A stretch of DNA of 64,000 bases from a virus (lineage: Duplodnaviria; Heunggongvirae; Uroviricota; Caudoviricetes), in IMG/VR virus record IMGVR_UViG_2585427970_000001, one strand, 5' to 3'. The notes under the pieces were generated by a model that worked only from the letters and a program-made list of their open reading frames with translations, was not told the DNA's origin and did not search any database. This document shows positions 38,860 to 42,851 of this stretch, in pieces. The translations under genes and the position numbers were made by a program. Position 1 is the stretch's first letter, and each line of letters opens with the position of its first letter.

Positions 38860-40053
38860 GTGACCTGGGACGATCACAAGAAGAATTTTGCTCGCCTGGC
38901 GCGAGATGGTGGTTACACCATCGCACAGTATGCCGCCGAGTTTAATCTTAACCCTAATACCGCACGTCGTTATCTCCGTGCCTTCAAAGAAGACACCAGG
39001 ACTGCGGACAGCCGCAAGCCAAATAAGCCAGTCAGGAAGCCACTAAAAAGCATGATCATTGATCACTCTAATGATCAACATGCAGGTGATCATATTGCGG
39101 CTGAAATAGCGGAAAAACAGAGAGTTAATGCCGTTGTCAGTGCCGCAGTCGAGAATGCGAAGCGCCAAAATAAGCGCATAAATGATCGTTCAGATGATCA
39201 TGACGTGATCACCCGCGCCCACCGGACCTTACGTGATCGCCTGGAACGCGACACCCTGGATGATGATGGTGAACGCTTTGAATTCGAAGCTGACGATTAC
39301 CTGATAGATAACGTTGAAGCGCGGAAGGCCGCGCGCGCTATGTTGCGTCGGTCCGGGGCCGATGTTCTGGAAACCACTCTTCTTGAAAAGTCTCTTTCTC
39401 ATCTCCTTATGCTGGAGAACGCCAGGGATACGTGTATTCGCCTGGTGCAGGAAATGCGCGATCAGCAAAAAAACGATGATGAAGGTACTCCGCCTGAATA
39501 CCGTATCGCGAGCATGCTAAACAGCTGTTCCGCGCAGATAAGCAGTCTGATCAACACCATTTACAGCATCCGGAATAACTATCGAAAAGAAAGCCGGGAG
39601 GCGGAAAAGCACGCTTTATCTATGGGGCAAGCTGGCATTGTTAAGCTGGCATACGAACGAAAGCGTGAAAATAACTGGTCAGTGCTGGAAGCAGCTGAAT
39701 TCATCGAGGCGCATGGCGGGAAAGTGCCGCCCCTGATGCTGGAGCAAATCAAAGCCGATCTGCGTGCTCCTAAGACCAATACCGATGATGAGGAAAGGCA
39801 AACTGCCGTCGGTGGCCCTTCTCTTGAAGATCTGGACAAAGTTGCGCGAGAACGGGCCGCCAACCGCCGCGCCGATGCCGCATTGTGGATTGAGCAACGT
39901 AGGGAAGAAATCGCCGATATCGTTGATACAGGCGGTTATGGAGATGTTGATACTGAAGGTGTATCAAACGAACCATGGCTGGAACAAGACCTGGACGAAG
40001 ACGAGGAGGAAGACGAAGAAGTTACCCGCAAGCTATACGGGGATGATGATTAA
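38860..40053 (+). CDS. pacA: terminase small subunit PacA
   Basis: 397-aa ORF containing the pac site in its 5' third; acidic C-terminal tail; start overlaps nothing upstream, stop abuts pacB. Confidence 0.88.
39050..39215 (+). other. pac packaging site (TGATCA/G hexamer clusters)
   Basis: Four TGATCA elements at 39053-39092 and three TGATC(A/G) elements at 39183-39212 flanking a ~90-bp core, i.e. the 4+3 Dam-methylatable hexamer layout described for P1 pac. Confidence 0.8.
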
Positions 40054-40492
40054 TGGCCAGAAGTTGCGTAACGGATCCACGTTGGCGCGAGCTGGTGGCG
40101 CTATATCGTTATGACTGGATTGCGGCCGCTGATGTTTTGTTCGGCAAAACACCTACCTGGCAGCAGGATCTGATTATTGAGTCTGTGCAGGAACAGGGTA
40201 GCAAGACATCTGTTTCGTCTGGTCACGGTACCGGGAAATCAGACATGACTTCTATCATGATCATGTTGTTCATAATCATGTATCCCGGTGCCCGCGCCAT
40301 TATCGTTGCGAACAAAATTCAGCAGGTAATGACCGGTATATTCAAGTACATCAAGATAAACTGGGCTACTGCCACCAGCCGTTTTCCATGGCTTGCTGAT
40401 TATTTTGTTCTGACAGAAACCGCTTTCTATGAGGTTACTGAACCGCCCCGGGAATCCTGGAGACTAAACTTCCTGAGAAAGAGGTAAACAGG

Positions 40493-40819
40493 ATGACTAA
40501 AAATACTCGTTTTTCCCCCGAAGTCCGTCAACGGGCAGTCCGTATGGTTCTGGAAAGTCAGAGCGAATATGACTCACAATGGGCGACAATTTGTTCCATT
40601 GCTCCAAAGATTGGCTGTACGCCGGAGACTCTGCGTGTCTGGGTTCGCCAGCATGAGCGGGATACCGGGGGCGGTGATGGAGGGCTCACCACCGCTGAAC
40701 GTCAGCGTCTGAAAGAGCTGGAACGTGAAAATCGTGAACTGCGCCGCAGTAACGATATCCTTCGCCAGGCTTCCGCTTATTTTGCGAAGGCGGAGTTCGA
40801 CCGCCTCTGGAAAAAGTGA
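40493..40819 (+). CDS. IS629-like transposase OrfA
   Basis: Protein sequence identical to the copy-1 OrfA. Confidence 0.9.
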
Positions 40820-41706
40820 TGCCACTGCTGGATAAGCTGCGTAAGCTGTACGGGGTCGGACCGGTATGCAGTGAACTACATATTGCCCCGTCAACGTATT
40901 ACCACTGTCAGCAACAGCGACATCATCCGGATAAACGCAGTGCCCGTGCGCAGCGCGATGACTGGCTGAAGAAAGAGATACAGCGCGTATACGATGAAAA
41001 TCACAAGGTATACGGTGTGCGTAAAGTCTGGCGTCAGTTGTTACGGGAAGGTATCAGAGTGGCCAGATGCACTGTGGCACGTCTCATGGCGGTTATGGGA
41101 CTTGCCGGTGTTCTCCGGGGTAAAAAGGTCCGTACGACCATCAGCCGGAAAGCCGTTGCCGCAGGCGACCGCGTAAACCGTCAGTTCGTGGCAGAACGAC
41201 CTGACCAGCTGTGGGTGGCTGATTTTACTTACGTCAGCACATGGCGGGGCTTCGTCTATGTGGCGTTCATCATTGATGTGTTTGCCGGATACATCGTGGG
41301 GTGGCGGGTCTCATCGTCCATGGAAACGACATTCGTGCTGGATGCACTGGAGCAGGCGTTATGGGCCCGTCGACCGTCCGGCACGGTCCATCACAGTGAT
41401 AAAGGTTCTCAGTATGTATCGCTGGCCTACACACAGCGGCTTAAGGAAGCCGGATTACTGGCATCAACAGGAAGTACAGGCGACTCGTATGACAACGCGA
41501 TGGCGGAGAGCATCAATGGTCTTTACAAAGCGGAGGTAATACACCGTAAGAGCTGGAAAAACCGTGCAGAAGTGGAACTGGCCACACTCACGTGGGTGGA
41601 CTGGTATAACAATCGACGATTGCTGGAAAGGCTGGGCCATACTCCTCCGGCAGAAGCAGAAAAAGCTTATTATGCTTCCATCGGAAACGATGATCTGGCA
41701 GCCTGA
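40816..41706 (+). CDS. IS629-like transposase OrfB (DDE)
   Basis: Protein sequence identical to the copy-1 OrfB. Confidence 0.9.
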
Positions 41707-42851
41707 GTTCACAGATAAAACACTCTCCAGGAAACCCGGGGCGGTTCATACTGGTAAAGGTGTATGGACTGTAGTACCGAAGGGCTTTCGTCTGGGAAGT
41801 GAAGAAGCTCTCGCCGGTGAACACGCAGATCATCTTCTGTATATTATCGATGAAGCCTCCGGTGTCAGTGATAGAGCTTTCGGTATCATCACCGGTGCTC
41901 TTACCGGACAGGATAACCGCATCTTATTACTGTCACAGCCTACACGCCCAAGCGGCTATTTCTACGATACTCACCATAAACTGGCCAAGCGTCCTGGTAA
42001 CCCTGATGGCGTTTATACGGCGATCACGCTTAACAGTGAGGAATCACCGCTGGTAACGCCAGCATTTATCAAAATGAAGCTGGCGGAGTACGGCGGGCGC
42101 GATAACCCTATGTACATGATTAAGGTACGCGGCCTATTCCCTAAATCACAGGATGGCTTCCTTCTTGGACGTGATGAGGTTGAACGTGCAACGCGGCGGA
42201 AAGTCAAGATTGCCAAAGGATGGGGCTGGCTTGCATGTGTGGACGTTGCTGGTGGTACGGGAAGGGATAAGTCCGTTATCAATATCATGATGGTGTCCGG
42301 CCAGAGAAATAAACGCCGTGTAATCAACTATCGAATGCTGGAATACACAGACGTTACAGAAACGCAGCTTGCCGCCAAAATTTTCGCAGAATGTAATCCT
42401 GAGCGATTCCCAAATATCACCATAGCGATAGACGGCGATGGGCTGGGTAAAGCAACAGCGGATCTGATGTACGAGTATTATGGTATTACCGTACAGCGTA
42501 TACGCTGGGGTAAAAAGATGCATAGCCGTGAAGATAAGAGCCTGTACTTTGATAAACGTGCTTATGCCAACGTTCAAGCCGCAGAGGCCGTAAAATCTGG
42601 TCGTATGAGACTGGATAAGGGTAATGAAACTATTGAGGAAGCGTCGAAAATCCCTGTAGGGATTAACTCCGCAGGTCAATGGAAGGTGATGAGTAAGGAG
42701 GATATGAAGAAAAAACTCAACCTGCACTCACCAGACCATTGGGATACATATTGTTTCGCTATGCTGGCGGATTATGTTCCCCAGGACGAAGTGCTTAGCG
42801 TCGAAGACGAAGCGCAGGTTGATGAAGCTCTTGCATGGCTTAATGAATGAA

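Follow-up and report, generated by a model that had tools for sequence, protein, structure and literature searches.

IS629 interrupts the terminase gene pacB in a P1-like plasmid prophage of Escherichia coli JA65

In bacteriophage P1 the packaging genes follow the order lpa, the late promoter LPpac, pacA with the pac site inside it, and pacB, which overlaps pacA. Cleavage of pac needs PacA and PacB (Skorupski 1994, as cited in PMC10028697), together with IHF and HU at Dam-methylated hexamers (PMC10028697 and its refs 34-36). A genome-wide CRISPR interference (CRISPRi) map of P1 scored pacA, pacB and lpa as essential for plaque formation, with a plating efficiency of <1.2e-7, and pacB amber mutants have been reported (PMC10695390). 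We analyzed a stretch of 64 kb, hereafter the window, which is identical to positions 32001-96000 of the PacBio HGAP2 record JMJD01000001.1 of E. coli JA65 and to which all statements on gene integrity refer. JA65 is a uropathogenic human bloodstream isolate from UC Davis, for which an Illumina (MiSeq) assembly, JFFN, is also available (PMC4271156). Judged by sequence, the element in the window is a P1-like (Punavirus) plasmid prophage of the RCS47 lineage. Its packaging genes share the order of P1 and of the closest alleles, those of RCS47 (FO818745) and pAPEC201602 (NZ_CP127299.1), but unlike in all three, pacB is broken at codon 129 by a copy of the insertion sequence (IS) IS629.

The pacB gene starts with an ATG at 40053 that overlaps the pacA stop codon (TAATG) and ends with a TGA at 42848-42850; as it is split at codon 129 by 1,313 bp, no uninterrupted, expressible coding sequence is present. 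The 5' part is contained in a chimeric open reading frame (ORF) of 144 amino acids (40053-40487), which joins PacB residues 1-129 to 15 IS-encoded residues and carries the P-loop SSGHGTGKS. For the remaining 366 PacB residues, which include the Walker-B-like motif and the C-terminal part, pacB itself provides no start codon. The ORF holding them extends back into the IS and spans 386 amino acids from an ATG at 41690 (20 IS-encoded residues followed by PacB 129-494) or 428 amino acids from a GTG at 41564.

The preliminary description of this DNA had placed the IS, with a clean 3-bp TAC target duplication, inside pacB and had proposed that removal of the IS and one TAC restores a frame of about 494 codons. 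The coordinates given for the IS proved exact to the base, and in-silico excision (40053-40438 joined to 41752-42850) yielded 1,485 nucleotides and 494 codons with a single terminal stop. The restored product aligned without gaps to PacB of RCS47 and of pAPEC201602 (493/494 amino acids, 99.8%, in either case) as well as to that of P1 (438/494, 88.7%). At the restored junction, all 57 nucleotides matched the uninterrupted pacB genes of RCS47 and pAPEC201602 (57/57), each of which has one TAC. The presence of only one TAC in the empty site of both relatives indicates that the repeat is a true target duplication and excludes a chance 3-mer. Against PHROG, restored PacB matched phrog_2 'terminase large subunit' over residues 33-474 (E=3e-40), a match that covers both sides of the insertion, while a Pfam search of restored PacB returned no family and a PDB sequence search only insignificant matches (Sf6 gp2, E=0.8); the family assignment is therefore based on homology to the P1 and RCS47 proteins and on the PHROG profile. 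Within restored PacB, the P-loop occupies residues 55-63 (GTGKS at 59-63) and the Walker-B-like motif residues 157-166, with the insertion site, codon 129, between the two. By this account, IS629 would have transposed into codon 129, duplicating the target TAC, and would have divided the ATPase core into a P-loop stub of 144 amino acids and a 3' remainder lacking its own start.

We identified the inserted element as IS629 of the IS3 family, apparently intact. Its length, its inverted repeats, which start TGAACCGCCCCGGG and are imperfect (23 of the first 25 positions match), its two overlapping ORFs with a -1 frameshift signal and the 3-bp duplication all agree with this assignment, as does its full-length match (99.1% identity, 1,310 bp) to elements that the Shiga toxin (Stx) phage records LC567824.1 and LC567828.1 label 'IS3 family IS629'. 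The tentative label 'IS629-like' can thus be replaced by IS629. Members of the IS629/IS1203 group, known from enterohemorrhagic E. coli (EHEC) O157 and Stx phages, resemble the JA65 copy in size (1,310 bp), terminal repeats, orfA of 108 and orfB of 296 amino acids, the ALIL frameshift pseudoknot and the 3-bp duplication. They differ in location, since they reside in the EHEC chromosome or in an Stx phage, whereas the JA65 copy sits in a plasmid prophage of uropathogenic E. coli (UPEC). To the IS1203 copy of plasmid pIDPH8234-2, the IS in pacB is 96.0% identical.

Since the plasmid bears two identical copies of the IS and the 121-kb PacBio contig (HGAP2) remains a draft, the IS might have been misplaced in pacB as a multicopy repeat, the real pacB being intact. 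Both junctions, however, recur in the independent Illumina assembly, without a base difference from the window where the two were compared: contig JFFN01000013.1 breaks off within the left end of the IS, and JFFN01000068.1 sets in within its right end. The 144-amino-acid chimeric product was found in exactly two public assemblies. In addition, an exact duplication of 3 bp combined with a perfectly matching empty site is what transposition, and not mis-joining, leaves behind. An assembly artefact, the caveat raised in the preliminary description, is thus already largely refuted by the presence of both junctions in independent PacBio and Illumina assemblies of JA65, and we regard it as extremely unlikely.

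Upstream of the insertion, the packaging module is undisturbed, as had been proposed for pacA and for a pac site of 4 + 3 hexamers. PacA is identical to that of P1 at 384/397 residues (96.7%) and to that of RCS47 at 392/397 (98.7%), without gaps. The pac hexamers (TGATC[AG], Dam sites) start at 39053, 39060, 39072 and 39087 and, on the other side, at 39183, 39195 and 39206. The pac region matches P1 90709-90919 at 209 of 211 positions; neither difference falls within a hexamer, and all seven are thus preserved. One of the two substitutions is located in the annotated IHF site and is common to pAPEC201602, which indicates a lineage polymorphism. With about 160 bp inside pacA and 4 + 3 hexamers, as in P1, the predicted pac site is intact. 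The closest intact relative, pAPEC201602, has one mutated hexamer in this region (13544-13754), which reads TGCTCA in place of TGATCA; none of the seven is mutated in the JA65 element.

Within the window, pacB is the only damaged essential lytic gene. The other losses concern only genes scored nonessential for P1 lytic growth, the CRISPRi map listing upfB, upfC, uhr, hrdC, dmt, pap and pmgT/U/V as nonessential (PMC10695390). Because pac cutting and head filling in P1 depend on PacA as well as PacB, the element should form no DNA-filled particles on induction. Loss of pac cleavage and packaging is the best-supported consequence of the insertion, and very probably the element can neither cleave pac nor fill heads and persists as a low-copy plasmid. 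The preliminary description had likewise proposed that the element cannot cut and package its own DNA and is maintained as a plasmid; this gains good indirect support from the essentiality of pacB in P1, the dependence of pac cleavage on both PacA and PacB, the separation of the ATPase motifs, the presence of parAB (as a divergent allele) and the intact state of RepA, Phd, Doc, c1, cre and loxP. Inheritance should then be vertical only, and the intact pac site should leave the element packageable in trans by a related phage supplying PacB. JA65 would accordingly release neither P1-type virions nor generalized transducing particles from this plasmid, and its cargo, comprising the 2,649-amino-acid autotransporter, a type III restriction-modification system and Phd-Doc, would pass to other cells only if a helper phage supplied PacB. 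A close relative with the same pacAB allele, JL22 (98.4% identical at the nucleotide level), forms virions and lysogenises.

Several points weigh against a complete loss of phage function. The 386-amino-acid ORF could be translated, and fragment complementation with the 144-amino-acid stub is conceivable. The window does not extend to some 36 kb of P1-equivalent sequence (P1 19-55 kb), which would hold lysis, tail fibre, sit, repL and further genes, so that the element as a whole may be more or less intact than the window suggests. Moreover, revertants may arise through excision of IS629, which is excisable in strains carrying the excision enhancer IEE; both IEE-promoted IS629 excision and reversion of an IS-disrupted lacZ are documented (PMC9943667, PMC9397093). 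The insertion might even act as a reversible switch, in which transposase together with an IEE-type enhancer, or slippage on the 3-bp repeat, removes the IS often enough for a subpopulation to harbor functional phage. The intact orfA, orfB and frameshift signal of the IS would be compatible with such a switch, and excision with one TAC would return a gene whose product is identical at 493/494 residues to that of the functional lineage. IEE, however, has been described mainly in EHEC lineages, whereas JA65 is a UPEC strain, and the title of PMC9943667 presents IEE-dependent repair as microhomology-mediated end joining, which may or may not restore the frame on a 3-bp repeat. Neither JA65 assembly contains an empty site. 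Spontaneous precise excision on a 3-bp repeat is assumed to be rare, which also counts against a switch. We therefore consider a reversible switch very improbable. Very improbable, too, is an extended version, in which IS629 would serve as a reversible lock: transposase-dependent, IEE-type precise excision would restore a PacB one residue away from a functional allele and now and then turn the plasmid back into a transducing phage able to package, and a superinfecting P1-like phage would meanwhile mobilize the plasmid and its autotransporter cargo via pac.

A second copy of IS629, absent from the preliminary description, lies 29.7 kb from the pacB copy in inverted orientation and is 100% identical to it (blastn, 1310/1310). 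It has no target duplication, as the flanks read GAT and ATG (9440-9467 and 10778-10852 inspected), which is consistent with an IS-adjacent deletion. The copy replaces P1 64582-69423, approximately 4.84 kb comprising the 5' end of upfB, upfC, uhr, hrdC, dmt and tRNA-Asn; the synteny break falls at P1 64581/69424 and at 30741/35338 of pAPEC201602. In the window, upfC, uhr, hrdC and dmt gave no tblastn matches, the UpfB remnant covers only residues 82-281 (tblastn), and tRNA-Thr starts 2 nucleotides from the end of the IS. The deletion takes out dmt, the phage Dam/Dcm methylase. It is established P1 biology that host Dam can substitute for the phage Dam methylase, and the loss of dmt should thus be covered by the host enzyme. 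An inversion between the two inverted IS copies was considered and rejected, as TAC is found on either side of the pacB copy and the two halves of the gene are collinear.

The second copy also bears on the age of the lesion. The preliminary description called the element 'domesticated'. Under long-term domestication, pacB loss would be one step in a selected decay of phage functions in a plasmid that the host keeps for its cargo. A 10.9-kb cargo block with an intact autotransporter, the second, IS-associated deletion and independent IS insertions in pacB of other P1-like plasmids would fit this interpretation, and loss of lytic functions has been reported in P1 derivatives such as pJIE250-3 (Venturini et al. 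2019, PMC6906374). Like the JA65 element, pJIE250-3 is by its description P1-like and maintained as a plasmid although its phage functions are impaired. In contrast, the damage in JA65 consists of a single clean IS insertion and one deletion of genes that are nonessential in P1. Furthermore, the remaining P1 genes of the window all encode full-length products (92-100% amino acid identity), the 100% identity of the two IS copies indicates a recent event, and, reasoning from P1 biology, loss of the terminase alone would not spare the host from lysis on induction. Long-term domestication thus appears very improbable, and the term is not supported. With identical IS copies and an otherwise intact gene set in the window, the knockout looks recent and the element recently crippled rather than long domesticated.

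IS insertions in pacB were rare: a search of 5,426 complete E. coli genomes yielded one complete case and a partial one, and PLSDB contained no second instance of the JA65 insertion. This rarity indicates that pacB is not a hotspot; the insertion points also differ. In pIDPH8234-2 (O111:H8), IS1203 is located approximately 1.1 kb into pacB, at a site different from that in JA65, and the junction alignment identifies this insertion as an independent event. In p812A1-65K, deletions accompany an IS629 whose boundary with pacB lies some 90 bp further downstream than in JA65; pacA is missing, as is the 5' end of pacB. This insertion either arose independently or is a derivative with IS-adjacent deletions; the flank identity of about 98% and the junction alignment favor independence. 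IS2 is present in pacB of CP057799 and CP057815. In all of these plasmids, as in JA65, the same gene has been struck by IS3-family elements while plasmid functions were left in place. The insertion in JA65 is thus genuine but unremarkable: an IS has disrupted a prophage gene, a kind of event already known. It documents a further step, at an early stage, on the established path by which phage-plasmids become plain plasmids and opens no new question. As a separate observation, p812A1-65K (NZ_CP116049.1 6001-7983), a 65-kb P1-like plasmid from China, carries an IS629 that is 100% identical to the JA65 copy, and its flanking pacB is an estimated 98% identical to that of JA65.

Table 1. Coordinates of features of the JA65 element in the window
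Feature	Coordinates	Strand	Remarks
parB + parA	4153-6326		divergent allele; 43% and 58% amino acid identity to P1, respectively
second IS629	9468..10777	-
cargo block, 10.9 kb	25277-36224		in place of P1 pap to lxr; common to pAPEC201602
PapB-like regulator	26056-26559		in cargo block
autotransporter, 2,649 amino acids	26865-34814		intact; ESPR signal and AC_1 autochaperone
LuxR/GerE-type regulator	35658-36044		in cargo block
lpa, late-promoter activator	38322..38774	+	intact; 150/150 amino acids identical to P1 Lpa; Pfam BPP1_LPA
LPpac, late promoter of pacAB operon	38806..38824	+	exact 19/19 match to P1 90475-90493
pacA, 397 amino acids	38860..40053	+	intact; PHROG phrog_1711 terminase, E=5e-203
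pac site (predicted)	39053..39211		inside pacA; 4 + 3 TGATC(A/G) hexamers flanking IHF and cleavage region
pacB 5' fragment	40053..40438	+	codons 1-128 plus 2 nucleotides
TAC target-site duplication, left copy	40436..40438
IS629 (IS3 family), 1,310 bp	40439..41748	+	same orientation as pacB
orfA, 108 amino acids	40493-40819		Pfam HTH_Tnp_1
ALIL frameshift pseudoknot	40774-40890		Rfam, 116 bits
orfB, 296 amino acids	40816-41706		Pfam HTH_21, rve, rve_3
TAC target-site duplication, right copy	41749..41751
pacB 3' fragment	41752..42850	+	PacB residues 130-494, Walker-B-like motif included
immI-like module	42945-44526		between pacB and c1; not at this position in P1
isrK-like small RNA	42945-43022
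C4 antisense RNA	43048-43135
antirepressor (ant), 372 amino acids	43408-44526		ORF6N/KilAC

The remainder of the window was surveyed for P1 homologues by tblastn with 62 P1 proteins. The gene order is collinear with P1 54888-94800 followed by 1-19064, and synteny, repA/oriR, parAB, phd-doc, c1, cre/loxP and structural genes, as expected of a P1-like phage-plasmid, were all found. RepA and Phd are 100% and Doc and Cre 99% identical to the P1 proteins, C1 is intact with 283 amino acids, and loxP matches that of P1 exactly. The divergent parAB beside a 100% identical RepA marks the maintenance region as mosaic. Full-length homologues of structural and morphogenetic proteins comprise gp22, gp23, gp5, gp6, gp24, gp7, gp25, gp26, pmgL-S and prt. 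Also full length are Ban, PdcA/B, C8, Ref and Mat as well as, among restriction and anti-restriction functions, Res, Lxc, Ulx and DarB; the type III restriction-modification system mentioned above is carried on the same plasmid. The contig JMJD01000001.1, an unfinished draft, measures 121,080 bp and thus exceeds the approximately 100 kb expected for a P1-like element by about 20 kb. This excess probably stems from terminal overlap left in the HGAP assembly of a circular molecule; otherwise it would represent additional cargo beyond the window.

In addition to the genes listed in Table 1, the cargo block holds an ORF of 180 amino acids. The same block occurs in pAPEC201602, but there the autotransporter is annotated as frameshifted. 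Downstream of pacB, the immI-like module also contains an icd-like ORF, along with ant; a module composed of isrK, C4, icd-like ORF and ant has been described for RCS47 and pTZ20_1P (PMC6906374).

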